From a virus: 64,000 bases of DNA. The DNA is taken from the IMG/VR virus record IMGVR_UViG_3300027797_000021, positions 27,617 to 91,616 of that record; one strand, given 5' to 3'. Each line of letters starts with the position of its first letter. Position 1 is the first letter of the stretch. Shown piece after piece: positions 14,101 to 62,933 of this stretch. Position numbers and translations under genes: made by a program. The notes beneath the pieces are model-generated. The model did no database searches and was not told where the DNA came from. It saw nothing but the letters and a program-made list of their open reading frames with translations.

Positions 14101-14320
14101 AAATACCTAGCTCATCTGCGTACATGATTTCTGAGGAAGATGTTTCTTTAATCTTATTTTCTATAATTATTTCTGAAACATCTGTAATAAATACATTTTT
14201 TGCCGGACTAATTGATTCCGAAGTAAACCAAGATATACCTGCGGCATGCAACGGGACCTTTGCCCCTATCTTTGTTGCTTTTTCCTTGCCAGAAGTAGTT
14301 AGATTGTCAAATATTTCCAT
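11174..14320 (-). CDS. Large virion structural protein, baseplate region
   Basis: 1048-aa ORF abutting the upstream gene; beta-rich and Ser/Asn-rich. Function is assigned by position only. Confidence 0.5.
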   Translation of the reverse strand: MEIFDNLTTSGKEKATKIGAKVPLHAAGISWFTSESISPAKNVFITDVSEIIIENKIKETSSSEIMYADELGILRRLNGSSSIATENITISNSFVHKKTVSELLDLNQVNPDSFSHYFYTSRYFAIAPSSISLISLDDYISDDIIISLGIKVLDEFGKDYINPITNKRKYKILLEPFRTENNTSLPEIPYRILVFLDPQQPINLKLMYNKVESDELGNVFGFQLRYSETINPVKYFKELPEESFVIDPNYYGSKNFSIKKIDQKYTNINLNNQPIENGYQVIVPSKAIKDYRTYEVFNWRIIARTKRSLNFNQVYYGVESDISSGTFSRTVKAAVLCTSSNSQNTNNGNTNPYAIYRLENSPFNLTRLKFTNPLAQNGINKNQADYWKVNIDTTDISGYDVLVWSPDAEITREQAEKINDFTGNKFGTLILDLSLCPNASKLNAGTQLAMSDGATANTVDMIDTNYLVDSTKNGGWSLSDNIFEKDYYGIFGSRLINGNASSPKTYKYFSSLANDNVFLKAGATTSAQYPIGAIIPASTNLVDTLSKGNIIATTFNLLAYCNSVYNLAYPDKVVDSNNAVSHYGNIENDNNVFSAIVEGPFKLLFNAVSYGIYCKSQSERKPTTASSLINFVTDWDSSWVMYSDALEDSEKILFENVDSESVYARNLTKDTSSNSPSIFTYLKTKMLEKLPEFQRNLLAELSVEDITFYVEVTNPDVGFVNAEVIPSPSITENIPSSYSLYKFVVSGAARGPLLAYTKKYSPSLQRIAGLGPHLLVERPAGTSSTRSLNSGIGFSSGFNSYPFKLSSKFTSFEGMDEPYGFDCDLSLTATIAIDGKGIELIPDIVTIIPESQPFIAEAKNFQSAIDDLNLQRSTKVSESSNVFPYTGDIDIHGITGIWKQTVDGGGDPGDEDVIDWAAIAAYIASLPPDTTSVPPVVPIADSTASRPDIIRVENVGVIAPGTNPAIITLTRFKGGTISTDAGLALYTQFSVRKLANQGEFGKYNIIFVFSTANFASSTIVKTLFNQTQAQLYSLGLGTFPASFISYNP

Positions 14321-17300
14321 TATTCTTCCTCATGGTCTGGATGCAATTGCGAGTAATCAGATATATAGTACGGAGTAGAGCCCATCAAACCCATTTGATA
14401 TTGATCGTATCTATTTAGCGGAATCCATTTTGGAGGTGACCAATTTGGTGTCGAATTATATGCGTAAATAATCTCTGCATTGGAGTGCTCATATGCAAAG
14501 CTGGGAGTTGCTAATATCTGTGAGTTTTGTTGCCTATTTATTGTATATATATTTGGTAGTGGGATATCATTCTCATCACTATATTGGATAGAATCGTATG
14601 ACTCATGCCAGTAAATAACATCTCCAGATATAGTAACGTCATTGGACAAAAGAACTTCTCCACTAGAAGTCAAAATAGACGTAATAGCTTCTTCGTTAGA
14701 GATATTTACCCGAGCAAACCAGTATCCCGGCGTGCTTGAGTCACTGGCTGTAATTTCATTAGATATGGTAAATTCTCCATTTGAATTAGTATTAATCACA
14801 TAATCTGGCGTAGCTGCAAACAAGTCTTTTAACGTCCTGCCGACATTCCAGGAAAGCTGGACTTCATTATTAAAGGGTTTATTCTTCCAGTAAATTTTTC
14901 CAGATATTGATACCTTACTGATGCCATCGGCATTTATGTTAATGTCGGACGCAGCTGCCTTAACTGACAAATTAAATGGGTCATTTCTATTTATTGCAAA
15001 TGGCACCTTTAAGATGTATCCTTCGGAAGAGCTATTTTGCTCACCATTCGGGGTGGCAGATCCTATTCCAACAATATCAATTACTCCCTCGCGATATACT
15101 GCTGGTATGTCACCATCATATCGAATGATGGCTGTTGCTAATCCATTATCGCTTGTCGTTATGAATGATGGTGTAGCTGAAATTAAATCACCAGAAATAG
15201 CAAATGTTTGACCTGGCTTTAGATTATATTGATTATCGTGAGATACCAAAGATAAATACATTAAATCTGAAGTAGAGTCAGAGATGTATGCTGGTGATAA
15301 ATGAGCTTCAACATGCGAAAATGGATAATCTTCTTTACTGACATATATGTATCCTTCATCTATCGGATTTAAGGATGAATTCAGATGTAAATTAATTGGA
15401 TATGTAATGTCGTTAATTGAATTTTCATAAGTAATATTATATGAAGAATTTGAGTTTGGAGTTGAGCTGAAATAAATTACTGAATTATATGCGTCAGCAA
15501 TAGGGTCATAAACGTCATTATCGAGATACCATGCATTATTTACCTTATACGAAACTAAGTATTCCCTATCGTATATGAATGGTGTGGCTGCACTTTGGGG
15601 TGTAGCTTCATTGGTCAGTGTAATTTGATTTTCGCTTACAAGTATAGTATCTAATACTTCTTTGCCAGTATAATTATCTAAGACTGATACATTAGATATG
15701 TCTTTATACGCTAAATAAATTATTTCATTTGCGCTGGCATTAACTATTTCAGAGTTTTCAAAAGTTAATTTTCCAGGAGTAGCGGCGTCTTCAAATGCCA
15801 TATTTCTATAGTTCTGACCATCAACATCAACAAGTACGGGGGCGCCATTCCTAGGCGTATTTAAAAGGTTGACACTGAAGAATCTTCCACTAGAAGATTC
15901 CGTAACTGGATTTGCATATATGTAATAATCATTTTCTTCCAGGTATATCCAACCCGTGTGTAGTGCTGATCGCTGTTCTTGAATTAAAAACTTATCTTTT
16001 TTAGCATGTACGTCTATGTAAGTTTCTACATCTTGACTAAACGAAGAATTTAAATTATTTAAAAGCGCATCTTGAGATTCAACGTATGCTTGAACTGAAT
16101 TTTGTGCAGTATTTAATGTAGCGTCTTTTATGATATATACATCATCTTGGAGAAGGCCGAAAGATTCTTTACTCAAATAAATTTTACTTAAAAAAGAATC
16201 AGTATTAAAATAAGAATTTAGCGGATTCTCCCCGGTCTCATATACGTTATCTAGCGAATCTATGTATCCACCAAAAAGATTAGGAGTTGTTTGGGCTGTA
16301 AACGATTCATAGGCATCAAAATATATTGGATAATAACTTGATGTAGCTGATTCGATCAGCAAGTAGTGTGGTGTTGACGCGTAATTAATTGTTGCAGAGT
16401 TAAAATAATTAGATGATCCGAGCGATATATTTGAAGAGCTGAATGGTTTCCATTTTATGTTTGGAGAAGATGGAACTAAATACTGCGAATTGTCATCTGG
16501 ATTAATGGTTCTCCCGCCAATAATATTTGTTTCTATATCTTCTGATCCAAAGTATCCAACCCCATTTGGAGCGCTGACGTCTACATAAAGATACTGAGGC
16601 GTTGCGTCGAATGGTAAGATTACTCTATCTAACATCTCATTTACGTAAATGGACTTTGTCGAGGTACCTAAGATGGTAGGATCATTTTGCGGATTCAGAC
16701 TAAAAGTAGATTGTAATGGGTTCGTGTTTAAGGATGCTATCTTTGTTGAGTAATCGGTAGATCCAATTTTTATATTAGCGTCTTGGGGGCGCCTATTTGG
16801 AGTGGCCATTGATATTTGAGAATTGACAGTTGGGTTAACGTAGTAACTTGGAGTACTAGTGGAAAATGAAGCACGATAGCTTGCAGTTGCAAGAGAAGTA
16901 TCGTATGCTTGGGACACATAATTCCATCCGCCATTTGAGAATACTATTTTTACTGAAGAAGCGTCATTGAAGGTAATACTATTAGTTATAGGAGACGCGT
17001 GAGTATTGAGGTAGATCTGATTATATACTTTATCTTTGAATACTACATCAGGAATGGTATTGCCCTCTTGATCAAATATTCTAATATAGTTAAATTCTGG
17101 ACTAGCAGAACTTGTAGCTGGTAATCTATTGCCAACATAAAAATCTTCTCTATTAGTATAGTTTAAATTTGAATAAAATGTAGAAGGAGTGGTGTAGTTA
17201 TCATGTGGTGGCATTATTATTTCATATGTCAGCCCAACTCCAACATCGGCTTTATTGACATTATTTACTTTCCCAGTGCCTGAGATATGAAGACCATCGG

Positions 17301-19788
17301 ATTTAGTTACAACTCTTAAAGCCAAGTTATTGGTGGGTGTTGTGCCACCAAGTTGTGCGCCAGGAATAGTAATTACATTACCTACTTGGTAGTTTGAACC
17401 ACCGCTGGTTACGGTAACTACAATGTTTCCAGGAACAAAACCATTAAGCGACCCAGTTTTCTGAATAGTAAATACTGCGCCAGAACCAGCAGTGCCAGAG
17501 GATCCCCCAGTGACTGTGCCCGTTACTCCAGTAACGGTTCCCGACCAACCTGCAGTGCCAGTTCCAGTCCCAGGTCCAGTCGCAGTAAAAACAGTACCAA
17601 TCGTATTATTTGCTGCGCCAATTGCGGTAAAGTCCGTTGTACCAACGGTGACTATAGTGTAACTCTGTCCACTGGCAAAATTACCTGCAGAGGTGACATT
17701 GTTCCCCGTAAAACTTGCAGTGCCAGTTCCAGTTCCAGGTCCAGTCGCAGTAAAAACAACACCAACCGTATTGCTTGCTGCGCCAATTGCGGTAAAGGAT
17801 GTATTTCCAACTGCGGAAATAGTGTAAACTCTTCCAGTCACAAAACTACCTGCAGTGACTGTAACTCCCGCAACGGTAAATGTTGTACTGCCGTTAGTAT
17901 CAAGTGCAGACTTTGGGTTTTGGTTACCCGAAAAATAAAACTGAGTAGTGCTGGCTACGGTAACTGTTCTTGTAGTATCATAGGAACTCGGTATTGTACC
18001 AGTTATCGCAACGGTGTCACCGTTACTAAGGCCATGAGGTGCTGATGTAACGTAGGATGTTGTAGCAAAGGTTGTAGAGTAACTGGCGCCAGATATGTTA
18101 ACAAACTTTCTTCTGCCAGCATTATAGTCTTGGACTGTTCTTAGGTATCTAACGTACCATGAATAGTCCACAAGGATTGGCGTGTAGGCATACTCTATTC
18201 CGGTCTTATGTACTCCGGCTATAGACATTGACCCATCGAATGATATAGTGGATTTCTCTAATGATTCTAGAATGAATCTTCCGTCAGAAAAATCTCCAAT
18301 ACCTGGCTGATAATATTCCGATAGCGGAGATGCGTCCGTATCATATATGGCAGGTATTCTAGATATACCTTCTCCGTCCATCCCAGAGTAGTCCCAAGTT
18401 CCCTCACCCCATCTAACATATCCTATATTAGATGGGTATCTATTATTTAAGTCTTCTACTAGATCTTTGAACATTTTTTCTGGCTTACCAGAAGGGGAAA
18501 AATACGGTGTTGTTTTTTCTAAATCTGAAATTTCATAAATACTTGGAAAAGCTTGAGTGCTGTCAGAGTCTACGTCTACGCCATAAGCCTTCCATATGTC
18601 CAACTCTCTTCTTAGTGTTCTCTTTAGACCGTCACTATGGATTCCTGGAATATTCTTAGATACATCTAATATTCTTTGCTTGTATCTTAAGTTAGTTTCT
18701 TTATATAGTCTTTCTAGGCCTACTCTTGCGCCAAATTCATCAAAGTTATTAAATATATTAACTGCATATTGCTCGTAAGGAGTTCCGTTTATGGAAAGCG
18801 TTACATACTCTCTCATGACAAGGATCTGTTTATCCATTGGATTATAATAATAAACATGATCTGTTATTCTACTTCTGTGAAAATCTGATAAAGAATTTAC
18901 AGGTGAAAGGATAACATCATCGCCTACAATGGTCTGGAGATTAGTTGGCACATCATAAGAGACATAGGCCCATGCAAGCATGTTTTCATCGGCGCTATTA
19001 ATGTACGCATTAATATCCCTTAGGTCGATCTCCGAAACAATAGCATCTATGTTTTCTTGAACCAATGCTGTCAGAAATTTACCACCTGTAGACTGAGGGA
19101 TAGCTAAGGAGGGGGTAGCGGGCTCTAGGGAGTCATCAAATAACTTTGTCCACGTTGGAAATCTTCTTAAGATATTCCTTGCTGAATTTGATATTACTGG
19201 AGACGTAGGCTCGTGTATGCCTATTTCCAAATAAAATAGCAGTCCCAGCGTGGATACGTCTATATTCTCAGAGAATATTTCAAGTTCTATTTTTATCCAT
19301 GGCTTAGCGTTTCTAATAAATATAATATTAGAATCAAACGATAGAGAAGACTTTAGCCATGGACCATCTTCCGTATCTGACTCATGCATCTGGATATTGA
19401 AAGAAGGTACTTCAAATCCTGGTAAGTTTGTAAAGGTATGTTTATAGGCTAGAACGTCTATTCTTGAGCTAGTATCCAGGAAGCGTATTAAGTCAGGCGT
19501 AGCTGGCTCATAAACTATTTCACCGGCATTAGTTACGTACAGTGCATTTGCGCTAAGGGGCGTCGACATATCATTAGAATAGGATGGTGAGGTTACTTCC
19601 GTGCCCACGTAAGTGTTGTCACCGATTAGATTAAGGCCATAGCGAGATCTGGTATATGAGTAGTTATTGTACTGACTATTGCTATATAGGTTTACGGGAT
19701 TAGTACTTGTCCATAGCGAATTTCCCGTTAAAGAGTCATATGTTTTAGTGAAATCTCCACTTTTAAAAAGTAACAAGTACTGCTTCAT
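14320..19788 (-). CDS. Baseplate wedge-like protein with an inserted Gly/Thr-rich fibre-type segment
   Basis: 1822 aa directly downstream of baseplate J. FDEFGARVGLERLYKETNLRYKQRILD resembles the wedge (P2 gpI/T4 gp7-type) LD..G...G..R...E.D..YR.RI motif. Confidence 0.6.
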   Translation of the reverse strand: MKQYLLLFKSGDFTKTYDSLTGNSLWTSTNPVNLYSNSQYNNYSYTRSRYGLNLIGDNTYVGTEVTSPSYSNDMSTPLSANALYVTNAGEIVYEPATPDLIRFLDTSSRIDVLAYKHTFTNLPGFEVPSFNIQMHESDTEDGPWLKSSLSFDSNIIFIRNAKPWIKIELEIFSENIDVSTLGLLFYLEIGIHEPTSPVISNSARNILRRFPTWTKLFDDSLEPATPSLAIPQSTGGKFLTALVQENIDAIVSEIDLRDINAYINSADENMLAWAYVSYDVPTNLQTIVGDDVILSPVNSLSDFHRSRITDHVYYYNPMDKQILVMREYVTLSINGTPYEQYAVNIFNNFDEFGARVGLERLYKETNLRYKQRILDVSKNIPGIHSDGLKRTLRRELDIWKAYGVDVDSDSTQAFPSIYEISDLEKTTPYFSPSGKPEKMFKDLVEDLNNRYPSNIGYVRWGEGTWDYSGMDGEGISRIPAIYDTDASPLSEYYQPGIGDFSDGRFILESLEKSTISFDGSMSIAGVHKTGIEYAYTPILVDYSWYVRYLRTVQDYNAGRRKFVNISGASYSTTFATTSYVTSAPHGLSNGDTVAITGTIPSSYDTTRTVTVASTTQFYFSGNQNPKSALDTNGSTTFTVAGVTVTAGSFVTGRVYTISAVGNTSFTAIGAASNTVGVVFTATGPGTGTGTASFTGNNVTSAGNFASGQSYTIVTVGTTDFTAIGAANNTIGTVFTATGPGTGTGTAGWSGTVTGVTGTVTGGSSGTAGSGAVFTIQKTGSLNGFVPGNIVVTVTSGGSNYQVGNVITIPGAQLGGTTPTNNLALRVVTKSDGLHISGTGKVNNVNKADVGVGLTYEIIMPPHDNYTTPSTFYSNLNYTNREDFYVGNRLPATSSASPEFNYIRIFDQEGNTIPDVVFKDKVYNQIYLNTHASPITNSITFNDASSVKIVFSNGGWNYVSQAYDTSLATASYRASFSTSTPSYYVNPTVNSQISMATPNRRPQDANIKIGSTDYSTKIASLNTNPLQSTFSLNPQNDPTILGTSTKSIYVNEMLDRVILPFDATPQYLYVDVSAPNGVGYFGSEDIETNIIGGRTINPDDNSQYLVPSSPNIKWKPFSSSNISLGSSNYFNSATINYASTPHYLLIESATSSYYPIYFDAYESFTAQTTPNLFGGYIDSLDNVYETGENPLNSYFNTDSFLSKIYLSKESFGLLQDDVYIIKDATLNTAQNSVQAYVESQDALLNNLNSSFSQDVETYIDVHAKKDKFLIQEQRSALHTGWIYLEENDYYIYANPVTESSSGRFFSVNLLNTPRNGAPVLVDVDGQNYRNMAFEDAATPGKLTFENSEIVNASANEIIYLAYKDISNVSVLDNYTGKEVLDTILVSENQITLTNEATPQSAATPFIYDREYLVSYKVNNAWYLDNDVYDPIADAYNSVIYFSSTPNSNSSYNITYENSINDITYPINLHLNSSLNPIDEGYIYVSKEDYPFSHVEAHLSPAYISDSTSDLMYLSLVSHDNQYNLKPGQTFAISGDLISATPSFITTSDNGLATAIIRYDGDIPAVYREGVIDIVGIGSATPNGEQNSSSEGYILKVPFAINRNDPFNLSVKAAASDININADGISKVSISGKIYWKNKPFNNEVQLSWNVGRTLKDLFAATPDYVINTNSNGEFTISNEITASDSSTPGYWFARVNISNEEAITSILTSSGEVLLSNDVTISGDVIYWHESYDSIQYSDENDIPLPNIYTINRQQNSQILATPSFAYEHSNAEIIYAYNSTPNWSPPKWIPLNRYDQYQMGLMGSTPYYISDYSQLHPDHEEE
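17551..17860 (-). repeat. Two-copy intragenic direct repeat, period 165 nt (55 aa)
   Basis: tgcagtgccagttccagt.ccaggtccagtcgcagtaaaaaca occurs at 17551 and 17716. The protein unit is AG.F..G..YTI..VG.T.FTAIGAA.NT.G.VFTATGPGTGTGTA. Confidence 0.9.
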
Positions 19789-19866
19789 TTAATCCTCAGT
19801 TTAACTAAAATTAATGTTTAAATAAAGTATATTATAATATATATTTTATTTATAAATAACTTATTC

Positions 19867-21036
19867 TTAATAAGTTGTCGATCCCATTATAACAGAATTT
19901 ATACTAACAGTTCCAGCTGATATATACTTTTTAATGCCTTGTAACGAAAAATCTTGTAGTGGCAGCTCTTTTCCATCGGCGGTAATGCTAGATACAATTG
20001 TATTTCTTATATAATCAGAAGATCTGTTAATTTGGTTTTCAATTTGGGTCAAGGACATGGTATCCCCTATGGTTAGTGAATTTAAATACCTCTTAACGAA
20101 TAATGATGCTTGATTTGCAATGCCGGAAGCCAAGGTCGCAGATACACCCATGGGGATTCTAATGGTAGCTGCAACTGAAACTGTAACTTTTTCTGCTATT
20201 CTAACATTGAATTTAACACCTACTGGCTTGACTGCGTTAACTGCTAATAAAATATTTTGAGGAAGATTACCTAATCCACTACTTGTTTCTGGGACTACTA
20301 CAATATCGCAAGATCCTATTCCATAAGAGCCTTCTCTAATTCTAACATCTCTTACGCCCCTCACTCCTAAGGCAGCAAACCTTACTGATTCTGCACTCCC
20401 CACTGCCTTTGACTTAATCGACGCAATTATTCTTCTTCTAAAATTAGAATCAGATTCTGAATTTATATTAGAATATACTTCTTTTGGATTATTACAAAAT
20501 ATGATTACTCCAGCTGGGGAAAAGAAATTGTGCTTTGTCAAAGAATTAACTGGAGCTACGTACGCATTGTCCGAGAAATTTGGTTCTACCCTACCGTAGG
20601 CTCTGGTTGAACCTGTTGGAATTACTACATCACCAGCTAGTTTAAAGCCATATTGTTTTGATATAAAATTTGACACGTCATTATAAACCAGTACATCTTT
20701 TGGAATAGTTATAGCCGAGCTATGAGCTTTATTTATGAAGAATTCTATATTGAAGGACTGTCTATCTTGAGAAGCGTAATCTGTTATACTCTTTCTTGTT
20801 ATCCCATAAAGATCGCCAATCAGATCTAGATTCCTACCAGAGGCACTAGATAGGTCCCCTTGCGTTATGTTGAACCTTAGTGCTTCGTAAAGATCTGATA
20901 TTTCAGAACTAAAAGCTTCCGCAAAAGCTCTAGCAATGGAACCTGGATAGACTGCCGATATTGCTGCGTCTTTTTGTAAAGAATTCAATATACTTACTAA
21001 TATATCTGATTTACTTTTAATACCATAAACGGACAT
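19867..21036 (-). CDS. Baseplate J-like wedge protein (T4 gp6/P2 gpJ family)
   Basis: ASGRNLDLIGDLYGITRK, ESDSNFRRRI and GVRDVRI...GSCDIVV...VKPVGV are baseplate-J hallmarks; it follows the gp25-like gene. Confidence 0.85.
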   Translation of the reverse strand: MSVYGIKSKSDILVSILNSLQKDAAISAVYPGSIARAFAEAFSSEISDLYEALRFNITQGDLSSASGRNLDLIGDLYGITRKSITDYASQDRQSFNIEFFINKAHSSAITIPKDVLVYNDVSNFISKQYGFKLAGDVVIPTGSTRAYGRVEPNFSDNAYVAPVNSLTKHNFFSPAGVIIFCNNPKEVYSNINSESDSNFRRRIIASIKSKAVGSAESVRFAALGVRGVRDVRIREGSYGIGSCDIVVVPETSSGLGNLPQNILLAVNAVKPVGVKFNVRIAEKVTVSVAATIRIPMGVSATLASGIANQASLFVKRYLNSLTIGDTMSLTQIENQINRSSDYIRNTIVSSITADGKELPLQDFSLQGIKKYISAGTVSINSVIMGSTTY

Positions 21037-21039
21037 TTA

Positions 21040-21420
21040 TTAATCTCCTAGATTTTGACTTATTGATAACATAATGGGTTCGTCTATATCGGATACTATG
21101 TGAATATCAAACTTAATAGTATCCCTGCTGGTTGGAACAGCGGTAATCTTAATGTTGCGTCCCTTGAAAAGGCCTTCTTTTTGAAGCCCAGCCATAATGA
21201 GAGCTTTACCAAATTCTGCTGTCTCTTTTGTCTGTGGCAGTCCGTAGAGTCTGGATAAATCTATTCCGAGTTGTGGATATATATAGAAATCTCCAGGCTC
21301 TGTCATTAGCCTTAGGTAGATTTGCTGGATATCTTCATGCAAAGAGGATGGAGCCAATCCGAGATCCCTTTTTCCATCGATAACAAAATCTCCATCTAAG
21401 GTAAAATATAGGTCACTCAT
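21040..21420 (-). CDS. gp25-like baseplate wedge/sheath initiator
   Basis: 126 aa; QQIYLRLMTEPGDFYIYPQLGIDL fits the gp25/gpW L.T..GE....P.FG motif. Confidence 0.8.
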   Translation of the reverse strand: MSDLYFTLDGDFVIDGKRDLGLAPSSLHEDIQQIYLRLMTEPGDFYIYPQLGIDLSRLYGLPQTKETAEFGKALIMAGLQKEGLFKGRNIKITAVPTSRDTIKFDIHIVSDIDEPIMLSISQNLGD

Positions 21421-22425: not shown

Positions 22426-22456
22426 AAAAGATCTCCTTATTTATGAATTATTGTGC

Positions 22457-24715: not shown

Positions 24716-24724
24716 TTATTACTC

Positions 24725-51683: not shown

Positions 51684-52955
51684 TTATAGACTAATGGCCA
51701 CTCTGACTTCGATCTCTTTGAGTTCGAAGGCAGGTGTTAAAATAAGGTCTACAACCGCCTTGTTTTCGTTCGGGATATAAGAGACCGTAAAGTCACTACC
51801 GAGCAAGGCTCCTACAATTTGCATACCTCTCAAGCCAGAAGTAATTGCTGTTTCCATCGCATTTCTTGTTTGAATATTTGATGGCTCACCAACGAATCTC
51901 TGGCAGGCTTGTCTAACAACCGATGTAGCATCATTAATGATTCTCTTGGTTGAAAGACGAGTATAATCTGATGTTGACCAACTAAAGGTTAATCCATCTC
52001 CAAATACTGGGATCTTATTAAAGTTAACAACAACACTGTTTACGCCCTTGTCTGACAAGGCAGTTTGCTGCGTTCTAGTGGGGGAGTATCTTATAGCCTC
52101 GACATTGTAAGCTGCCTTATTAACGACTGAACTGTATGAAGGAAGTATGCTTATAGTTGCCGCCATATGTGTAGCTCCATTTGCATAACCAAAATCAACG
52201 CTTCCAGAAGAGTAGTTAACTGGCTTAATTTCTGTAGCAACAACTACCACATAGGGACCAGTCTCTTTTAGTAGGTCGCTATTGTTTCTAACTGGAAGAC
52301 TAGTAAGAGCCAAATGTGTATTGACATTTCCTGGAGTCATAGTCTCCGATGTTCCAGCGTATGGATTAACTCCCATAATTGCTATGCATGGATTGATATT
52401 TTCCGAAATATCTTTAACTTTTGCCGAAACCTTATACGCCCAGTTATAAGCGACGGTAGCAGAATTATCTGCATAGAATCCTACTGCCGGAGCAGTAGTG
52501 CTTGTGTTCGGCGTTGCACCTGTGAGGTCCCAGGTATATGGGTGACCACCACGACCCCAAGGAACAATGATGTCTGGGATGCAAGACTCTGCAGCAATGA
52601 ATGCATCGTCGAAAATGTCTACTGAGACGGGAGTGGCATCACTGCTTAAGCTAGTAACAGCTCCAGTAGATGGAACAAATACGGTATTGCTTGGTAACGG
52701 AACGATATACATTCTTCCGGCTCCAGCAATGAGCAATTCAAGGAATGCTCTGTGTGCATCTGATCCGTCACCAAAGGCAGAGATGACATCAGCTTCGTTT
52801 GAAACTCGTACGACATCAAGGTCAGCCACTCCACCGGTTAGATTTGGGGTGCTGCGCTTTGCAATTGCAACAATTCGAGGACCAGCTGGTGCGTCCTGAC
52901 GTGAGACGCTATAGAAGCGATCTCTGATTAAAGTTTTTACTCCAGGTATACCCAT
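51684..52955 (-). CDS. Tail sheath protein
   Basis: The C-terminal LSDKGVNSV...YTRLSTKRII...FVGEP...VDLILTPAFELKEIEV is typical of the contractile-sheath C-terminal domain. Confidence 0.85.
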   Translation of the reverse strand: MGIPGVKTLIRDRFYSVSRQDAPAGPRIVAIAKRSTPNLTGGVADLDVVRVSNEADVISAFGDGSDAHRAFLELLIAGAGRMYIVPLPSNTVFVPSTGAVTSLSSDATPVSVDIFDDAFIAAESCIPDIIVPWGRGGHPYTWDLTGATPNTSTTAPAVGFYADNSATVAYNWAYKVSAKVKDISENINPCIAIMGVNPYAGTSETMTPGNVNTHLALTSLPVRNNSDLLKETGPYVVVVATEIKPVNYSSGSVDFGYANGATHMAATISILPSYSSVVNKAAYNVEAIRYSPTRTQQTALSDKGVNSVVVNFNKIPVFGDGLTFSWSTSDYTRLSTKRIINDATSVVRQACQRFVGEPSNIQTRNAMETAITSGLRGMQIVGALLGSDFTVSYIPNENKAVVDLILTPAFELKEIEVRVAISL

Positions 52956-53010: not shown

Positions 53011-53069
53011 CACACAACTTATAAAAACAACTACAAACTTAATTTTGGCAGAGATTAATATATACCATA

Positions 53070-53936
53070 TTAGCTATTGGGTGTTGCGCCCTGGAAAAGA
53101 TCTATGACATTACCTTCCGTTCCAGAGTAATTGGGAGTAGCAGCGTGCATCTCTTTAAGGAGTTCCTTCTCATAAGCCATCCACGTTCTTGCATCAACAA
53201 CAATCTTTTCAATTCTATTATTAGCTATTGCAAACGTTTTTTCAGTAGTTAACATATATGTGACGGTTCTTTTATGTATATCCTTGCCGTCTCTGTTTAT
53301 TTCTGAGTCTGACAGTCTCCTAGAATAGACTAATTCAGATGCGCCTGCGGCTTTAAAAATTGAAGTATATTCCAGCATAAAGTCCTCAAAGGCTTCCATG
53401 ACCTGATCACACAGAACTGCCGCATCAAGATCATCTCTGGTTGTCGTACTATTTGGCCCTTGGAAAGTTCCAACCTTGCTCATTACCGTAAAGCCTACTA
53501 CATTTTGAAATTTCTGACCATAGATTGTTACAGAATTAGAAAGTACATTTTGGCGCATTCTTGGCTTTGGCTCTGTCGTGTGGGATTTTCTTAGCTCTAA
53601 ATGATAACCGATTATTGCTGGAAAGTCATCTAGTCCAACATTTGTAGAAGACGGGGCTGACGAAAGATCTCTTGTGGAGTTTTCAATAGATCCAGAGTCC
53701 TTATACGTTACGGATGATTCTCTATTTATACTTAATGGAAGTATTGGTATTGTTGGATAGCTTTCTTCCCATATTTTTTTAACTAAGCTAACAAACTCTA
53801 GGTAAGTTAGATTTCCAGTGTATACTTCCTCAATTCCGTCACTATCTAACCTACGATAACCAGGAGCCTGCAGAGCAGGTAAACCATATCTTGCGTTTTC
53901 AGAAAAGTGAGGAAAATCTCTATTTAAGTAACCCAT
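53070..53936 (-). CDS. Putative tail terminator/tail completion protein
   Basis: 288 aa just upstream of the sheath; the GQKFQNVVGFTV...FEDFMLEY...RTVTY pattern fits a tail-completion fold; position supports this. Confidence 0.5.
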   Translation of the reverse strand: MGYLNRDFPHFSENARYGLPALQAPGYRRLDSDGIEEVYTGNLTYLEFVSLVKKIWEESYPTIPILPLSINRESSVTYKDSGSIENSTRDLSSAPSSTNVGLDDFPAIIGYHLELRKSHTTEPKPRMRQNVLSNSVTIYGQKFQNVVGFTVMSKVGTFQGPNSTTTRDDLDAAVLCDQVMEAFEDFMLEYTSIFKAAGASELVYSRRLSDSEINRDGKDIHKRTVTYMLTTEKTFAIANNRIEKIVVDARTWMAYEKELLKEMHAATPNYSGTEGNVIDLFQGATPNS

Positions 53937-53937
53937 A

Positions 53938-55530
53938 TTATGCTCCTGGACCAGCTGCTAGTGAAAAGTCTACCCTCTTTAATCCAAGGGCTGAAAGTAA
54001 TGCTATTTCAAAAATGAATACACCTCTTTGCGTTTCTGATGCCTGAACATTAAACGAGAAGTCATTTATTATTAAGTTTGTTTTAAGTGATTGTAAGAAA
54101 TCTTTAGTTTCAGAAACTATTTGGTCAAAAGCCATAATATCAAAATGGGACACTGCCTTTATTTCACTGACAACAAGCGATATTAGTCTCATTTGTGCTA
54201 GCTTAGTGAAGGCAGATCCTTCGCCAGCCATTGTATATTCATTAGTCAAATATACTTCGAAAGGTACTGCTCTTCTTGTCTTCTTTCCACGATATAGTGT
54301 ATTAATTCCCAAATCTTCTAGTCTCAAATACTCAGCTTGAGTGAGATCATTGCCGAATAAAGACATAGCTCCTGGTATTCTAGCTCTAACTAAAGCCCTA
54401 CTAACTGGAGCAGCGGATATCATTCCTGCGACTGCTGCTGCTGCATTCGAAACATAGCTTAACTTTATTTGAGGGTGCTGGAAAACCATTTCTCCATATA
54501 TTGGAACTATGTATCGACCCTTATCAGAAGATATTTGTCCAGTTTGATTATTGTAAATGGTAAATTTATCAGTAAATATAGGATTTTGTTCTATTATGTC
54601 TATGTCTGAGGCAGTAATGCCATTAGTTCTAGAGCCAATAATCCCTACTTGAACATTTCCAGTATTGTTGTGAAAATCAGAGCAATAAGTTGCAAGTTGC
54701 GTTACAAAATCTACTGTACCGGTATTTATAATGGAAGTTTCAAGTGGAACAATTATGTCTACAAAATCTAAATCTATTATATCTTGATAAGTCTGTTGAA
54801 GTCTTTCGTAATATTTTTCATAAAAAGTTTGAGAACTAGGGGTTGCTTGATCTCGATTAAATACTGTAGTAGATATAAATCTTCCTTCATAACTATCAAC
54901 ATACTCTATCATCGGCGCTGACGCACAAATCATTATATCTCTCGCCCCACATGAGTAAGCGTCTAAGACACCTCGCAAAAGCGGACTACTAAGATCTGCC
55001 TGGAGTAGATTAACTGCTTGTTGTATAGAATCAATTCTTACTGGAAAGTTTAAATCGATGCCGTCTGCGTGCCCTATTAATAGTAGCGTACTTGTATTGC
55101 TTGTGTTCAGCTGTTGATATGTAGGTCTGTAGCTGATTACGCTTGATTTTGGAGCTACGATTGTGGCGGGTGACAATGTGCTAGTGGATGCTTTTACCTG
55201 AAATACTGAAGCTACATTGATGTTTCTAACTGCGCTATTCGTTCTAGCTAAAACAGTGTAATTATACTCGTAAAGATTGTCAGGAACAGTATAATGGAAA
55301 ATATACTCTCCATTGGTGACTTTTTCTATTCTATTGCCCGTAGCTTCTGGATCTTGAGAAAGATACAGATAAGGGCCATCAATTACTGCGCCTGCCCCAC
55401 TTTCACCTCTAAGCACGTATATGCTTATATCTACGGGCGTGGCTAAACTAGCTGGATCATAAATTGTTCCATCAAAATCTGTAAATATAAATCTAAATTG
55501 AGCTGTCTGCCCCTTGGATAAAACTAACAT
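53938..55530 (-). CDS. Second sheath-like protein with an N-terminal Ig-like domain
   Basis: Start reassigned to MLVLSKGQ (ATG at 55530). LLIGHADG, LLRGVLDAYSCGARDI and LEDLGINTL...FTKLAQMRLI...INDFSFNV are sheath-type motifs. Confidence 0.6.
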   Translation of the reverse strand: MLVLSKGQTAQFRFIFTDFDGTIYDPASLATPVDISIYVLRGESGAGAVIDGPYLYLSQDPEATGNRIEKVTNGEYIFHYTVPDNLYEYNYTVLARTNSAVRNINVASVFQVKASTSTLSPATIVAPKSSVISYRPTYQQLNTSNTSTLLLIGHADGIDLNFPVRIDSIQQAVNLLQADLSSPLLRGVLDAYSCGARDIMICASAPMIEYVDSYEGRFISTTVFNRDQATPSSQTFYEKYYERLQQTYQDIIDLDFVDIIVPLETSIINTGTVDFVTQLATYCSDFHNNTGNVQVGIIGSRTNGITASDIDIIEQNPIFTDKFTIYNNQTGQISSDKGRYIVPIYGEMVFQHPQIKLSYVSNAAAAVAGMISAAPVSRALVRARIPGAMSLFGNDLTQAEYLRLEDLGINTLYRGKKTRRAVPFEVYLTNEYTMAGEGSAFTKLAQMRLISLVVSEIKAVSHFDIMAFDQIVSETKDFLQSLKTNLIINDFSFNVQASETQRGVFIFEIALLSALGLKRVDFSLAAGPGA

Positions 55531-55532
55531 TT

Positions 55533-55904
55533 TTACTTCTCTCTTGTGGCTCCGACAGTCCAATAGTTTATTTTCCCGAACCTACCCCTAACTGCAGTGG
55601 CTGCAGCTATGCTGAACATCGTATAATTTTTACTTGATTTTAAAGAATAATTTTCATATATTCTATCCCCCTCTTTGGGGAAGATATTTTCTTCAAAATA
55701 ATATACTGCGTCGTAGTTAGTTAAAATGCCTTCTTGAGTTTCAGTAGAAGAATTTGCATTAGTGGTGCCGGATTGTCCCACTTGACGTGTTGTTACTCTT
55801 TCAAAACGATCAGAATGGTTTCCATTATCCAGCATTCTCTGTATGTAAACGTCGTGTCCCCATTGTCTAAGTATACGATTAAATGATTTCTTTGCATCAA
55901 TCAT
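55533..55904 (-). CDS. Putative head-closure/head-tail joining protein
   Basis: Likely start MIDAKKSF (ATG at 55904). ILRQWGHDVYIQR...YYFE...PKEGDRIYE resembles SPP1 gp16-type stoppers; neck position. Confidence 0.5.
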   Translation of the reverse strand: MIDAKKSFNRILRQWGHDVYIQRMLDNGNHSDRFERVTTRQVGQSGTTNANSSTETQEGILTNYDAVYYFEENIFPKEGDRIYENYSLKSSKNYTMFSIAAATAVRGRFGKINYWTVGATREK

Positions 55905-56781: not shown

Positions 56782-56796
56782 CTTTTACCTCTTAGT

Positions 56797-57249
56797 TTAA
56801 GCGTTAGACATAATAGTAACGTCGATTGTCCCTGCCGAGTTATCCTCTAGAATAATAGTTTCTGCGCTGGAAATGGCATAGGCTTCATTCTTATTTATCG
56901 ATATTGCTATATATCCAGAGCTATACGTATCTTCGCTATTTAAACTTGAAATGGCATACGCGTTTGCGTTTATTGTACTTATTTCTGAGGATCCGTAACC
57001 GTCAAACATTGCAAAAGTCATATAGGATGACGTCTCAGTGTTTTCTATTACTCCGCTTGGAGTGATAACGGAATGACTATTAACAAAAACTAATGTGCTA
57101 TCTACAGATGGTGGCGATATAACAATAACGCCTAATATGTTTAGGCCACCAAAATTAGTAGTTAACCCAAAAGACTGAGGAGAAACTACATATACACCAC
57201 TATAATTGAAATGAGCTTGGTTATAGTCTATATCTCCATTGTAGAGCAT
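56797..57249 (-). CDS. Hypothetical virion protein
   Basis: 150 aa, beta-rich, in the fibre/neck cluster. Confidence 0.5.
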   Translation of the reverse strand: MLYNGDIDYNQAHFNYSGVYVVSPQSFGLTTNFGGLNILGVIVISPPSVDSTLVFVNSHSVITPSGVIENTETSSYMTFAMFDGYGSSEISTINANAYAISSLNSEDTYSSGYIAISINKNEAYAISSAETIILEDNSAGTIDVTIMSNA

Positions 57250-57262
57250 CTAAATCCTTTTA

Positions 57263-59396: not shown

Positions 59397-59398
59397 GA

Positions 59399-59737
59399 TT
59401 AAAAATTTCCTCCATCGGTAAGGTTTTCTTCGGGGTGATTCACCCAAACTGAACCGTTGTAACGCAAAACGTTACCTGAGTTCACTGTGGTAATAGTAAC
59501 GTCAGTCAATCCATTTAGAACTGATTGAGTAGTAATTGTAGTTTCTGCAGCTATTATTCTATCTTTAACTGTTAAATGACTGCCTGCTGGACTCAATCCC
59601 AAGACCGTTTGCATGGCCTCAATGGCGTCATTTGCATTAGCGTGCTGTTGATGGTGAGGTACCGTTACTGAATTAAGCGCATCAGATGATGTAGGATTGA
59701 TCAATACGTCCAATGCTGCGGGATACTGGGTGGTCAT
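59399..59737 (-). CDS. Small fibre-associated/minor structural protein
   Basis: 112 aa; YPAALD...PHHQQHANANDAIEAMQ, then an LNGLTDV...GNVLRYNGSVWVN fibre-type repeat, ending DGGNF. Confidence 0.6.
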   Translation of the reverse strand: MTTQYPAALDVLINPTSSDALNSVTVPHHQQHANANDAIEAMQTVLGLSPAGSHLTVKDRIIAAETTITTQSVLNGLTDVTITTVNSGNVLRYNGSVWVNHPEENLTDGGNF

Positions 59738-59746
59738 AAAAATCCT

Positions 59747-60157
59747 TTATAAACTAAATATTTTATATTGTTCGTTACTCCAATTAATTGTGATGGAGAT
59801 AGGACTAGCACTAGAAGATACTGGAAGTCCAGTAGCTGTATCTATGTAGGCTAAAAGTCTTGATGTAGATCTAACTCCAGTATCTTTATATAAAACTAGA
59901 TAGGCAAAACCGCTAGTCCCGTAATCTTCTATTGTAATATTATCAGCATCAAAGACACCAGATGCTGTTGTTTTTCCGCTTAATAAACTAGTAGTTGCTG
60001 CGACTGAATCTTCACTAATGCTTGATAAGAATTCATGTGTACTTAAATTTACTGTATAAGTATTTTTTACTAATGCAATTTTTAAGTTATTGTCAGTTAG
60101 GTCAAATAAACCCTCTAGTAGGCCTTCTTTACCTTTTGTGTATAATGCATTTGCCAT
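59747..60157 (-). CDS. Small virion structural protein
   Basis: 136 aa; MANALYTKGKE...LKIALV...GVFDADN...LLAYID is a pattern common in phage minor structural proteins. Confidence 0.6.
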   Translation of the reverse strand: MANALYTKGKEGLLEGLFDLTDNNLKIALVKNTYTVNLSTHEFLSSISEDSVAATTSLLSGKTTASGVFDADNITIEDYGTSGFAYLVLYKDTGVRSTSRLLAYIDTATGLPVSSSASPISITINWSNEQYKIFSL

Positions 60158-60930
60158 TACAGACCCACCTCAGCCGATACGATTACTCTGTATTTATAGC
60201 CTGATTCAAAGTAATTTTTTCCATCAACATAGTAAACGGGAGTAGCGTCGTCTGACGGGAAGTCAATATATACATCTGGCTTCCATGAGTGCATCGAAAC
60301 CTCTGATGATACATTTTCCCATCTCGATGGAGTCTTTTGAATTTTCTTACGTTGAGCTTTAAAGTATTTTAATGTCAGAAAGTTTGATGCTGGACGAGAA
60401 CTGAATACAACTGTCACTCTTCCATTGTTCTCATCGTTGTTTAAATAAAAGTCACCATTAGAAGGATTAGTTGATTCTATATAGAAATTAGGATTCTTTG
60501 CTAGTATCTGATATCCAGTTTCTATATCAGCTCTTACTGATTTATCCTCTATCAACACTTCGTTAAGTACTGTTGCTTGGCTCTCTTGTAGAATTGAAGG
60601 AGTTGCCGAATTAGTTTGGCTAGTAAAGCTAATTTTTTCCTCAGCCACTGTTAGCCCAGATGAGTCAACTAAGTTAGTGACCCTGACAATATAGTCGGTA
60701 TTAGAGCTTAATACTGAATTCCAATAAAGAGTTAAAGTTCTACTGATCTGATTATAATCAGTAATTGTATTTATCGTTCTAAATGGAGATGAACTTTGAA
60801 CAGGTGTAGCTGAATCTGTTTGTACAATAAAATTAGCATTTATTAATGATGCTATCTTGATTGTCCTGCCAAATTTAATATTTACTGTATTAACAGTAAC
60901 TGTAGCACTATCTATCAAATATAAAGCCAC
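60157..60930 (-). CDS. Ig-like domain virion protein
   Basis: 257 aa with two Ig-like beta units (LSSNTDYIVRV, ESGYKYRVIV); immediately downstream of the capsid gene. Confidence 0.55.
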   Translation of the reverse strand: MALYLIDSATVTVNTVNIKFGRTIKIASLINANFIVQTDSATPVQSSSPFRTINTITDYNQISRTLTLYWNSVLSSNTDYIVRVTNLVDSSGLTVAEEKISFTSQTNSATPSILQESQATVLNEVLIEDKSVRADIETGYQILAKNPNFYIESTNPSNGDFYLNNDENNGRVTVVFSSRPASNFLTLKYFKAQRKKIQKTPSRWENVSSEVSMHSWKPDVYIDFPSDDATPVYYVDGKNYFESGYKYRVIVSAEVGL

Positions 60931-60983
60931 TCAACACACTCCATAATTATAATCCTGAACTAATAGTAATAAATTAATTCAAT

Positions 60984-61026
60984 AAAAAGCAAAGGGGCAG
61001 TAGATTTCTCTACCGCCCCCAGCTTT
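60984..61026 (-). terminator. Rho-independent terminator after the major capsid gene
   Basis: The minus strand reads GGGGCGGTAGA-GAAA-TCTACTGCCCC followed by TTTGCTTTTT. Confidence 0.8.
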
Positions 61027-61058
61027 AGGGTAATTTGTAACTATAACGACCCTAAGGT
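61025..61058. other. Hairpin containing a 20/22 match to 23S rRNA helix 69 / the I-CeuI site
   Basis: Plus strand 61037-61058 GTAACTATAACGACCCTAAGGT versus 23S GTAACTATAACGGTCCTAAGGT; stem TTAGGGT (61025-61031) / ACCCTAA (61049-61055). Confidence 0.6.
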
Positions 61059-61062
61059 TCTA

Positions 61063-62121
61063 TCAGCTTGCTTCGTTCGTAACCTGTATTTCATAGTTAC
61101 GGCTCAATCTGACGTTCTTAGCAACTGTGATACCCTCACCGTCACCCAGCATTACGATGTCGTAACGCTCCTTCATCTTGAGTGCACGAAGATCGCGACT
61201 CGGATCGTCGAACTGATCAGTGCTCATATCGTCCTTGACGAGAAGAGTACCGACTTCATTACGGTCGATGAGGAAAAGGTCTGACTTAGCTGCTGTTCCG
61301 CCACTCTTAGCTGTGAAGCTAACAAAAGGCGAAACAAGAACATTCAAGCCCATCGGGGCCGTCGAGTTCAGTGCGCCTTCTGGCGACTGAGGACGATATC
61401 CCCAACTTGTACCTACAGAAGATGCCGCTCCACCAGCGTGGAAGATGGAATCCTTGAGGAAGACCGACCACATTAATGGGTGCAGAATGAAATCTGTTGG
61501 GATATGATTTTCAGCCATAAGGATAGCAGCCATGTCCACAATGTCATCCCAGGTGACTGTCAAGTTGGCTGTGCCATTGATGTCTCTACCTGTTGTGTCA
61601 CTGTAACTACCACTGTCGTTATCGAATGCAATTGTAGCTGCATCCTTGAAACGGCTAAGAGCAATTTGCTCTTTCAAACGAGCCATAGCACGGCCGGCTG
61701 CGCGAACATGTAAACCGACAATGTCCCAAAGTGAATCAGCGATGACTTCCTCCGTAAAGGATAGCTTAACGCCCTTCTTTGAAACTTTGCCTTCTACCTG
61801 CTTTGCGAAAGCGAGTGCTTGCTCTGGATACTCTTGTCCTTCTGGGATCTCTGCTGCTTGAATAGCGTTGACTGCGGGGAACTCCAAAGAGCGTCCCTTA
61901 CCGAGACGAACAGTGGAAAGCAATGGAGTCACAAGTAGTTGTGGCTCTGCTGCTTCTTTAAGCGTACGCGAAAGAACTTTGGGGAAAAGTGCTGCTGCGT
62001 CTGGTGACGCAAAAGCTTCCTTAATTGTTACTCTGTTGTCTGCATCTATGTACCCGTCCTCAGTCAATACTGCTTCCCAAGCTGGGAGACCCGAGAGGAG
62101 CTCTTGGATTGTCTTACTCAT
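61063..62121 (-). CDS. Major capsid protein (HK97 fold)
   Basis: 352 aa; AAEIPEGQEYPE, KKGVKLSFTEEVIADS, PTDFILHP and KMKERYDI are HK97-fold motifs; AGGAGG SD and a downstream terminator. Confidence 0.9.
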   Translation of the reverse strand: MSKTIQELLSGLPAWEAVLTEDGYIDADNRVTIKEAFASPDAAALFPKVLSRTLKEAAEPQLLVTPLLSTVRLGKGRSLEFPAVNAIQAAEIPEGQEYPEQALAFAKQVEGKVSKKGVKLSFTEEVIADSLWDIVGLHVRAAGRAMARLKEQIALSRFKDAATIAFDNDSGSYSDTTGRDINGTANLTVTWDDIVDMAAILMAENHIPTDFILHPLMWSVFLKDSIFHAGGAASSVGTSWGYRPQSPEGALNSTAPMGLNVLVSPFVSFTAKSGGTAAKSDLFLIDRNEVGTLLVKDDMSTDQFDDPSRDLRALKMKERYDIVMLGDGEGITVAKNVRLSRNYEIQVTNEAS

Positions 62122-62168
62122 CGTAGGATTATTCCTCCTGTGTTAATGTTTCTTTTGTATTAATAATA

Positions 62169-62933
62169 TTAGAGTGTCAGATTGACGCGGAAAGCACCAA
62201 TGACATTGTGTACGTCCAGGTTGGCCCGGATACCTAACTTACCACTGTAGGTGCCTGCACGAGTAAGCTCGTAAACAGTCTTTAATGCACCTGGATCAGA
62301 GGGAAGTTGCATATAGCTGAGTAAGCCATCATCGAAGTTGGTAGCGAACTGCTCAACCTCAACAACTTTACCCACTTGCAACCATGGATAAGCACCAGCA
62401 GCAGATGTTGTTGCTGCGAATGCCACCGGACGACCCATGTGATCGGCTCGGATTAATGAACCAACTGTTACATCGGCGTTAACCTGTGCAACCATTGGAT
62501 ACTCTACGTAACCGTGTGTAATGAAGCCAGCGCCCTGTGAGGTACCTTTATCAAATGGTCTGTAAAGATCATATTGTGCGCAGCCAATCGGAACTGAATA
62601 GGCGCCCACAGAAATTGTGTCAGTTGAACCAGAGGTCGAGCTAGGGGTAGCGCCATCAAGCGGATCCCAGCTGGGCATAACGTCGCCCCATGATTGGCTT
62701 GAAGCGGTTCCGTTAGCGGGAACGATGCGAGCATCGCCGTTTGCATCTGCTACTACTGAAAGAATGGTACCCTTGGTGACAACGATCTCAAAACGATCAT
62801 CTTCACTATCATTGTACCATGTCGGAAGACCGGGATGGGGCAGTAAATAGGCTGCGGGGGCAATGCCCTCAGAAACTACAAACCGGCCTGCACCAGTCTT
62901 ACTATGAACCTTGCGGAACTTTGCTAAACTCAT
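62169..62933 (-). CDS. Putative capsid decoration/cement protein
   Basis: 254 aa between scaffold and capsid genes, with a strong SD (AAGGAG) and capsid-like codon usage; beta-rich (VTVGSLIRAD..G...QVGKV). Confidence 0.6.
   Translation of the reverse strand: MSLAKFRKVHSKTGAGRFVVSEGIAPAAYLLPHPGLPTWYNDSEDDRFEIVVTKGTILSVVADANGDARIVPANGTASSQSWGDVMPSWDPLDGATPSSTSGSTDTISVGAYSVPIGCAQYDLYRPFDKGTSQGAGFITHGYVEYPMVAQVNADVTVGSLIRADHMGRPVAFAATTSAAGAYPWLQVGKVVEVEQFATNFDDGLLSYMQLPSDPGALKTVYELTRAGTYSGKLGIRANLDVHNVIGAFRVNLTL

Follow-up and report, generated by a model that had tools for sequence, protein, structure and literature searches.

A short Ala-Thr-Pro tag scattered over a phage baseplate protein and selected head and tail proteins: a candidate O-glycosylation sequon

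The DNA analysed here, which we call the window, is G000:C1:27617-91616; it makes up the 64 kb at the right-hand side of one phage contig of 91.6 kb, whose source record is 43% complete as estimated by CheckV. All genes of the window are on the minus strand, its GC content is 33-43%, and it holds the structural module of a myovirus, in which PHROGs identify a capsid protein and a tail sheath and Pfam identifies a Baseplate_J and an Ig-like Big_5 domain. The window further encodes three giant proteins of 3755, 2201 and 1611 amino acids (aa) and five tail-fibre-like proteins. The subject of this work is the tripeptide Ala-Thr-Pro (ATP in the one-letter code), which is strongly enriched in a subset of these proteins and above all in a 1822-aa protein of the baseplate module. 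We refer to it, together with the related tripeptides that fit the working motif [AST]-[TS]-P, as the tag. The genes in which ATP occurs, and the gene directly upstream of the main carrier, are as follows (positions in the window).

14320..19788, minus strand: 1822-aa baseplate-module protein, the main tag carrier, with 11 ATP (residues 96, 224, 995, 1062, 1336, 1395, 1401, 1538, 1578, 1659 and 1760), 7 STP, 4 TTP and 28 copies of [AST][ST]P
19867..21036, minus strand: Baseplate_J-like protein, 389 aa (Pfam PF04865, E = 4e-9), motif-free
51684..52955, minus strand: 423-aa tail sheath (PHROG tail sheath, E = 9e-20), two ATP, at residues 107 and 147
53070..53936, minus strand: 288-aa virion structural protein (PHROG), two ATP, at residues 266 (53133-53141) and 284 (53079-53087)
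53938..55563, minus strand: 541-aa tail-module protein, family unknown, two ATP, at residues 41 (55435-55443) and 240 (54838-54846)
60157..60930, minus strand: 257-aa Ig-like protein adjoining the capsid gene (Pfam Big_5, E = 3e-5), three ATP, at residues 41 (60802-60810), 109 (60598-60606) and 229 (60238-60246)
62169..62933, minus strand: 254-aa head-module protein encoded just upstream of the capsid gene, one ATP, at residue 95 (62643-62651)
3556..5751, minus strand: 731-aa tail-fibre-region protein, one ATP, at residue 544 (4114-4122)

The 1822-aa protein is placed in the baseplate because the Baseplate_J gene lies directly upstream of its gene; distant tblastn matches of its orthologues also adjoin genes annotated as 'baseplate J/gp47' in Bacillus jumbo phages. 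Only 0.52 ATP would be expected in this protein from its composition, compared with the 11 that are present. The corresponding Poisson probability, 1e-11 before correction, is the top of all tripeptide-by-protein tests, and the runner-up reaches 6e-6. Pooled over the 35 proteins of the window, ATP occurs 22 times against 4.3 expected (1.4e-9), which makes it the most enriched of all 8000 tripeptides there (the next one stands at 1e-4), and each of the five other arrangements of its three residues occurs 2-6 times. Half of these sites are supplied by the 1822-aa protein. The numbers of ATP, STP and TTP that a first-pass annotation of this DNA had counted by hand turned out to be exact in every case. 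For the wider motif, the 28 copies in the 1822-aa protein compare with 5.0 expected (1e-12), and 22 of the 25 Thr-Pro dipeptides in it are preceded by Ala, Ser or Thr. This excess of [AST][ST]P is clear only in the 1822-aa protein and nominal in the 257-aa protein (3e-3); the remaining tagged proteins were recognised by the conservation of their sites instead of by count.

On the coding strand, the DNA word GCNACNCC has 22 occurrences in frame 0, three in frame 1 and none in frame 2; the opposite strand has six, and the third codon positions vary among the ATP sites. Hence, selection acts at the level of the protein, as had been proposed in the first-pass annotation, and a DNA repeat is not its source. 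Three trivial origins of the excess were considered and rejected: a DNA-level word, because the enrichment is confined to one frame of one strand; a repeat or a domain duplication, because the flanks of the ATP sites are unrelated; and local composition, because 5000 global or 50-residue-block shuffles never produced more than four ATP. The codons of the tag are mildly biased in their own right. The Pro codon CCC is used in 8 of the 22 ATP tags, compared with 11% of the Pro codons elsewhere in the same genes, and G/C-ending codons are mildly over-used (p = 0.07 for Thr and p = 0.03 for Pro, binomial).

The ATP excess is reproduced in independent genomes. In G006, a complete genome of 231 kb with terminal repeats, ATP is the top tripeptide genome-wide, with 58 occurrences against 13.6 expected (3.5e-19). 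In another relative, G001, the tag is concentrated in the structural block and three single occurrences are found elsewhere. G006 also encodes a second large protein of 1618 aa (G006:C1:202772-207628, L160) with 11 ATP against 0.8 expected, next to a 590-aa protein with three, which shows that the set of tagged proteins differs between lineages.

In the five smaller tagged families of the window, the tripeptide is invariant while its neighbours vary; it is replaced only by STP or ASP, apart from two homologues of the sheath that have DSP. The counts that follow refer to distinct homologues from IMG/VR loci. For the 257-aa Ig-like protein, 31 such homologues with 57-98% identity to the window protein were available; residue 41 starts an ATP in 29 of them and an STP in the other two, and residues 109 and 229 each start an ATP in all 31, within variable flanks. 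The 254-aa protein, for which no family match was found in PHROG and Pfam searches, has ATP at residue 95 in 44 of 44 homologues, and the four residues that follow vary. In the 541-aa protein, ATP at residue 240 is present in all 17 homologues, and the site at residue 41 reads ATP in eight, STP in seven and ASP in two of the same set. The 288-aa protein ends in GATPNS followed by the stop codon, its second ATP being three residues short of the C-terminus; this site (residue 284) is ATP in 15 of 16 homologues and ASP in one, and the site at residue 266 is ATP in all 16. In the sheath, residue 147 starts an ATP in 14 of 16 homologues and a DSP in two, whereas the ATP at residue 107 is found in one of the 16 and is private to this phage. 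The names second sheath, tail completion protein and decoration protein, which the first-pass annotation gave to some of its ATP carriers, are to be read as provisional.

In the baseplate family, it is the number of tags that is conserved along with some of their positions. All 28 orthologues of the 1822-aa protein from IMG/VR and metagenome-assembled genomes (MAGs), including three partial proteins, carry the excess, down to 27% identity, and the full-length ones contain 11-20 ATP and 16-31 [AST][ST]P. In an alignment of 13 of them, some twelve sites are fixed and many others have been gained or lost in particular lineages; at aligned sites, ATP, STP, TTP and ASP interchange, whether the orthologues are close or distant. 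Of the motif sites, 54-75% are retained at about 50% identity, compared with 12-14% of random triplets; retention at 27% identity is 21% for the motif and 2% for random triplets. The 27%-identity orthologue has lost 22 sites and gained 19, giving a total of 25 versus the 28 of the window protein. Orthologues compared down to this level of identity contain 24-31 motifs. As losses are offset by gains and the total remains at about 25-30, selection maintains the number of tags and not only particular positions.

A search with the first 1200 residues of the 1822-aa protein against 1.84 billion cluster representatives returned 83 full-length orthologous clusters at 50% identity, in which the ATP count is bimodal. 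In 77 clusters it is 6-21, and in the other six (P0041, P0052, P0072, P0079, P0102 and P0112) it is 0-1. These six tag-less clusters contain [AST][ST]P at or below expectation, and their Thr-Pro dipeptides total 34 against 40 expected. Their nearest relatives carry the tag, with 10-13 copies kept in the sisters. On a tree of the N-terminal domain, the tag-less proteins are nested among tagged sisters (P0072, for example, lies beside P0050, which has 12 ATP), and these nested positions imply at least four independent losses. At the sites that the sisters share, the tag-less proteins have often kept the Ala and the Pro, and the Thr has become Glu, Tyr, His, Leu, Val, Lys or Arg, with AEP, AYP, AHP, ALP and AKP among the resulting tripeptides. 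At one site where the tagged proteins have ATP, five of the six tag-less proteins read SDP, AYP, AYP, AHP and ALP, and the sixth has retained ATP. Such an all-or-none state, combined with a decay that is aimed at Thr, argues for a trans-acting factor that would read the tag through the Thr hydroxyl, and against a role that is local and purely structural. The tripeptide behaves like a sequon in that it stays invariant amid variable flanks, turns over without a change in the total and is lost as a block in nested lineages; a sequon is also what the first-pass annotation had taken it to be.

Across the 952 ATP sites of the 77 tagged clusters, Ala is 9.6-fold enriched before Thr-Pro, Thr is 7.8-fold enriched within A-x-P and Pro is 10.8-fold enriched after Ala-Thr; as some of the sites are homologous, these values and those that follow are no more than indicative. 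Upstream of ATP, Tyr or Phe is favoured at position -3, Asp, Glu or Gln at -2 and Gly, Ser or Pro at -1, and Lys and Arg are almost excluded from positions -2 and -1 (0.07-0.10 of expectation). Downstream, Asn, Ser or Glu is favoured, then Ser, then Leu. To judge from these frequencies, the preferences look enzyme-like. We also mapped the motifs onto AlphaFold2 models, both of low confidence, and found them in loops, where the first-pass annotation had expected them. In the model of the 257-aa protein (mean predicted local distance difference test score, pLDDT, of 64), which consists of two beta domains, the three tags are in coil, two of them in low-confidence loops. In that of residues 1300-1822 of the baseplate protein (mean pLDDT 60), which is nearly all-beta, 10 of the 11 motifs are wholly in coil between strands, whereas ATP1538 straddles the end of a strand. 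Both models thus fit an exposed location of the tagged loops.

Two groups of genes at the left end of the window are without the excess.

1-1413, minus strand: 471-aa protein at the window edge with a CBM_4_9 carbohydrate-binding domain (E = 2e-13), without excess of the tag
1415..14320, minus strand: five large tail-fibre-like proteins (714, 731, 867, 925 and 1048 aa), an internal negative control

The tail-fibre-like proteins contain 2, 1, 1, 2 and 1 copies of [AST][ST]P against 1.0, 1.1, 1.1, 1.6 and 2.3 expected, which is no excess. The single ATP of the 731-aa protein compares with 0.07 expected and its one [AST][ST]P with 1.1, and we regard its membership in the tagged set as doubtful. 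The 471-aa protein, which carries no tag, is probably a receptor-binding or glycan-binding component of the tail. ATP is absent from the 352-aa capsid protein (61063-62121), from every open reading frame (ORF) in the 27.6 kb of the contig that lie outside the window, and from the 3755-, 2201- and 1611-aa proteins, in whose 7567 residues the wider motif is not in excess either. The first-pass annotation had seen in the tag a mark of exterior virion proteins in general. This label is too broad, since the tail-fibre-like, CBM-bearing and giant proteins have no excess; the capsid protein has no ATP at all, and one protein accounts for half of all ATP sites. The genes of the giant proteins (24725-47898, minus strand) are flanked by the sheath/tube region on one side and by the baseplate genes on the other, and a 149-aa gene is found between those of the 3755- and 1611-aa proteins. 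The giant proteins may be a tape measure, ejected proteins or internal proteins. A 646-aa protein (57507-59447, minus strand) that matches virion structural and tail-fibre PHROGs contains 14% Ala, 17% Thr and 1.5% Pro and, despite this composition, has no ATP.

In the non-structural remainder of the contig, there are three glycosyltransferase genes, two of them GT2 genes 8-12 kb outside the window; the first-pass annotation had proposed to look for enzymes of this kind in the rest of the genome.

G000:C1:18732-19520: GT2, 263 aa (Pfam PF00535, E = 3e-14)
G000:C1:16533-17270: GT2 (GmaR-like), a 246-aa ORF of about 230 aa from the conserved start (Pfam PF00535, E = 2e-9)
G000:C1:15882-16520: GT-D-like protein, 213 aa (Pfam PF22882, E = 6e-9)

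The nucleotide-binding and DxD motifs of the 246-aa GT2, FTDDCSDDNT and IDCDE, are conserved in seven orthologues. Its best match in the PDB is the glycosyltransferase domain of GmaR (22ao; E = 2e-8 over about 100 residues), and the 263-aa GT2 matches generic GT2 enzymes of solved structure. Both GT2 genes are found, 0.3-3.1 kb apart and with 45-59% identity, in G006, G007 (90% complete) and G008, which are the three most distant genomes of sufficient completeness among the tagged ones examined; in G009, the second GT2 gene is probably beyond the end of the contig. The gene directly after the 246-aa GT2 (L137, L138, L139 and L088-L092) varies. It encodes a GT-D-like protein in close relatives, a protein with a GT2-like N-terminus in G007 and G008, and in G006 a 314-aa protein with a GxxGxxG N-terminus like that of NAD-dependent epimerases/dehydratases, the last two assignments being from N-terminal motifs only. 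A variable third gene beside a conserved GT2 is the pattern expected if a conserved initiating step precedes a lineage-specific elaboration. Relatives additionally encode a third GT2 and a TOD1_MUCI70-like protein.

The explanation that we favour, and to which we would give about an even chance, is that [A/S/T]-[T/S]-P is a cytoplasmic O-glycosylation sequon whose Thr is modified by the conserved pair of phage GT2 enzymes. The sequon would be displayed on loops and would mark the giant baseplate protein above all and, besides it, two proteins of the head module (the Ig-like one among them), the sheath and two proteins of the tail module. Its reader would be a soluble phage enzyme that acts in the cytoplasm of the host, either ahead of assembly or in the course of it, and modifies the Thr hydroxyl, most likely by O-glycosylation. 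The leading candidates for this enzyme are the two conserved GT-A (GT2) transferases, the GmaR-like one and the 263-aa one, and a third, lineage-variable enzyme encoded beside them, which in this phage is the GT-D-like protein, could elaborate the glycan. A more specific proposal, in which our confidence falls somewhat short of even, is that the minimal sequon is [A/S]-T-P, preceded by acidic or aromatic residues and not by Lys or Arg, that it is read by the stand-alone 230-aa GT2 and extended by lineage-specific partners, and that its copy number in the baseplate protein is held at about 25-30.

Several observations weigh against glycosylation by these enzymes. The tail-fibre-like proteins are without excess of the tag. 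The similarity to GmaR is modest in its E value and limited to about 100 residues, the nucleotide-binding half, and no TPR domain was found in the 246-aa GT2, in which Pfam shows only GT2 domains. The genes between the transferases of the contig are DNA-related (an SNase, a pyrimidine-dimer glycosylase and a nucleoside deoxyribosyltransferase-like protein), which leaves room for a DNA or nucleotide substrate. The location in loops discriminates weakly, because proline favours loops anyway and both models have a pLDDT of only 60-64. Furthermore, a joint loss of tag and transferases is hypothetical: four of the tag-less clusters (P0041, P0079, P0072 and P0102) were looked for in IMG/VR and not found, and alignment-based scans of IMG/VR, JGI metagenomes and GTDB gave only tagged orthologues. 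Finally, the phage transferases could serve a substrate other than the tag, and other conserved phage proteins of unknown function could be its reader. Sugar modification of DNA via hydroxymethyl-pyrimidines was considered separately. No ThyA-family gene was found in four nearly complete genomes or on this contig, and the classical route to sugar-modified DNA, which requires such a hydroxymethylase, is thus unsupported; other DNA routes may exist.

The block loss and the Thr-specific decay of the tag require a reader, but a reader of any kind would do. It could be another enzyme, from the host or an unrecognised phage protein, that adds something other than a sugar, be it by phosphorylation, by hydroxylation of Pro with or without a glycan linked to the hydroxyproline, or by some other chemistry on Thr. 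Proline-directed kinases need no more than [S/T]-P, and plants hydroxylate prolines in the context [A/S/T]-Pro, so the motif itself would suit either activity. Close relatives of the phage do carry PF13640 prolyl-hydroxylase-like genes beside the third GT2 and a tryptophan halogenase. However, PF13640 is absent from the tagged genomes G006 and G007, the former complete and the latter 90% complete, which rules out a phage prolyl hydroxylase as the universal reader, and the copies in G001 are next to a collagen-like protein. Judging by this gene order, the collagen-like protein may be what the PF13640 hydroxylases serve, and it is a likelier substrate than the tag. Moreover, the tag-less lineages keep the Pro and lose the Thr, hence Thr is the selected residue. 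A phage kinase was likewise rejected as the reader: no Pkinase (PF00069) match exceeds the Pfam cut-off in five genomes, and the one sub-threshold match is in G006 only. Overall, we consider a non-sugar modification unlikely. The hydroxylase region of the relatives has some features of its own. In G001, an island (G001:C1:133001-153000, L100) contains two PF13640 oxygenases, the tryptophan halogenase (E = 1e-99) and the third GT2, the oxygenases being just downstream of the 1394-aa collagen-like gene with its G-x-y repeats (G001:C1:132546-136730), and G003 has seven PF13640 paralogues within 12 kb. This collagen/hydroxylase part of the relatives' genome is missing from the contig described here.

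It is also rather improbable that the tag is a non-covalent docking code, in which exposed A-T-P loops are bound by a phage or host protein, for example a chaperone of assembly, a fibre or decoration protein or a lectin on the host surface. With a binding partner that acts in trans, the block loss, the flank preferences and the stable copy number would be explained just as well; the sites are located in loops, and the presence of the tag in several head and tail proteins would suit a shared binder. On the other hand, three residues within variable flanks are a very small epitope for specific binding, and a candidate binder was not identified. Thr is replaced by Ser, and Ala by Ser or Thr, with the hydroxyl retained at almost every site; this fits a chemistry performed on the hydroxyl better than the recognition of a shape.

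A further possibility, and one that we find still harder to uphold, is an intrinsic structural device that needs no reader, for example one that ends a beta-strand or caps a turn in all-beta domains. In both models the motifs are situated just after strands, and since Ala and Pro often persist in the tag-less lineages, an A-x-P turn may itself be structural. Such a device does not explain why six nested lineages have lost essentially all the Thr at once while their sisters keep 10-13 copies, why the total stays constant under positional turnover, or why the tail-fibre proteins, which are similarly large and beta-rich, have no excess. As for chance, composition, a DNA-level word or a repeated domain, single occurrences such as those in the 731-aa protein and at sheath residue 107 are compatible with them, but the uncorrected probability, the shuffles, the single-frame DNA word, the unrelated flanks and the excess in independent genomes make these explanations of the whole pattern next to impossible.

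Glycosylation of mycobacteriophage virions was reportedly described by Freeman et al. (2023, Cell Host Microbe). If the tag is indeed a glycosylation sequon, the mycobacteriophages are among the closest precedents. The available summaries describe O-glycosylation of the virions of Che8, Corndog and Myrna by phage-encoded glycosyltransferases (PMC12363180, PMC12619734) and place the glycans at the C-termini of capsid and tail-tube subunits (PMC12619734); a three-residue sequon is not reported in these summaries. Similar to those phages, the phage described here encodes its own glycosyltransferases, and its head and tail structural proteins are the presumed substrates, which would be modified inside the infected cell. 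Unlike in those phages, the sites are scattered in loops, the capsid protein is untagged and a baseplate protein is dominant; only the site at residue 284 of the 288-aa protein is near a C-terminus. The hosts differ as well: mycobacteriophages infect high-GC Actinobacteria, and this phage, with 38% GC, a lake bacterium. The actinobacteriophages had been invoked as a precedent in the first-pass annotation; for the phage described here, they are an analogy only. Given that the C-terminal location on capsid and tube subunits is not found here, the phage is not a member of the mycobacteriophage pattern.

At the level of the enzyme, the closest comparison is GmaR of Listeria monocytogenes, a GT2-type cytoplasmic O-GlcNAc transferase of flagellin (PMC9638930; PDB 22ao), the TPR domain of which has been proposed to recognise the substrate and which also contains an anti-repressor domain (PMC9638930). 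The 246-aa GT2 resembles it in being a small GT-A enzyme with a DxD motif and, like GmaR, would presumably act on Ser/Thr in a structural protein that is exposed at the surface, before that protein is exported or assembled. It differs from GmaR in having neither the TPR nor the anti-repressor domain and in that the similarity extends over about 100 N-terminal residues only. To our knowledge, no short sequon is known for GmaR.

Three other systems share features with the proposed sequon. The general O-glycosylation system of Bacteroidetes is said to use D-(S/T)-(A/I/L/V/M/T), a sequon credited to Fletcher et al. 2009 and Coyne et al. 2013. This is also a three-residue O-glycosylation sequon that is centred on Ser/Thr and recurs on many proteins, but its residues are different, and that system acts outside the cytoplasm on exported proteins with lipid-linked glycans. 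We looked for the Bacteroidetes sequon in the window proteins and found 77 occurrences against 84 expected, i.e. no excess. The mucin-type polypeptide GalNAc-transferases, which are GT-A enzymes, reportedly prefer a Thr followed by Pro in the context X-T-P-X-P (Yoshida et al. 1997). The preference for Thr over Ser, the Pro at +1, the small residues nearby and a GT2-like GT-A catalytic domain are common to both, whereas the mucin-type system is eukaryotic, is located in the Golgi lumen and has a lectin domain; no homology to GalNAc-transferases was listed in the solved-structure searches with the GT2 enzymes. The third system is HMW1C/NGT, which glycosylates the HMW1 adhesin at many N-X-S/T sites in the cytoplasm. 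It has in common with the proposed one a single large surface protein with many scattered short sequons and a soluble cytoplasmic transferase, but the linkage there is to Asn and the enzyme is a GT41 of the GT-B fold, as opposed to Thr and a GT2 of the GT-A fold here.

The group to which this phage belongs is abundant and uncultured. Its capsid protein has 562 relatives in IMG/VR, and the 80 that are listed are 90-100% identical and are found on contigs of up to 194 kb. No near-identical cultured phage was found in a megablast search against INPHARED, and at the protein level the only cultured relatives are the remote baseplate matches in Bacillus jumbo phages (tblastn). Tagged orthologues are present on CAZGYC010000035.1 (L149) and PXEJ01000415.1 (L148), which are binned as a Limnohabitans MAG and a cyanobacterial MAG, respectively. 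As hints at the host, these two bins are in conflict and weak.

Glycosylated phage particles are known from a few mycobacteriophages, and a literature search on Ala-Thr-Pro and glycosylation found no published short glycosylation sequon for any phage. A defined short sequon scattered over a baseplate protein would therefore be new relative to known phage virion glycosylation. What the present data offer for testing is a precise site, namely [A/S]-T-P within loops and with preferred flanking residues, together with a few presumed substrates and two small candidate enzymes, and the 257-aa Ig-like protein with its three near-invariant sites allows the proposal to be tested without culture of the phage. 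If the proposal is true, phages of aquatic habitats put a coat of sugars on selected proteins of the baseplate and the head, which raises the question of a role in adsorption, stability or escape from host sensing. The GT2 and the tag might also yield a compact, portable enzyme-and-tag pair for glyco-engineering in the cytoplasm. In summary, the tag would then represent a phage counterpart of the viral glycan coat across a widespread family of lake jumbo phages.

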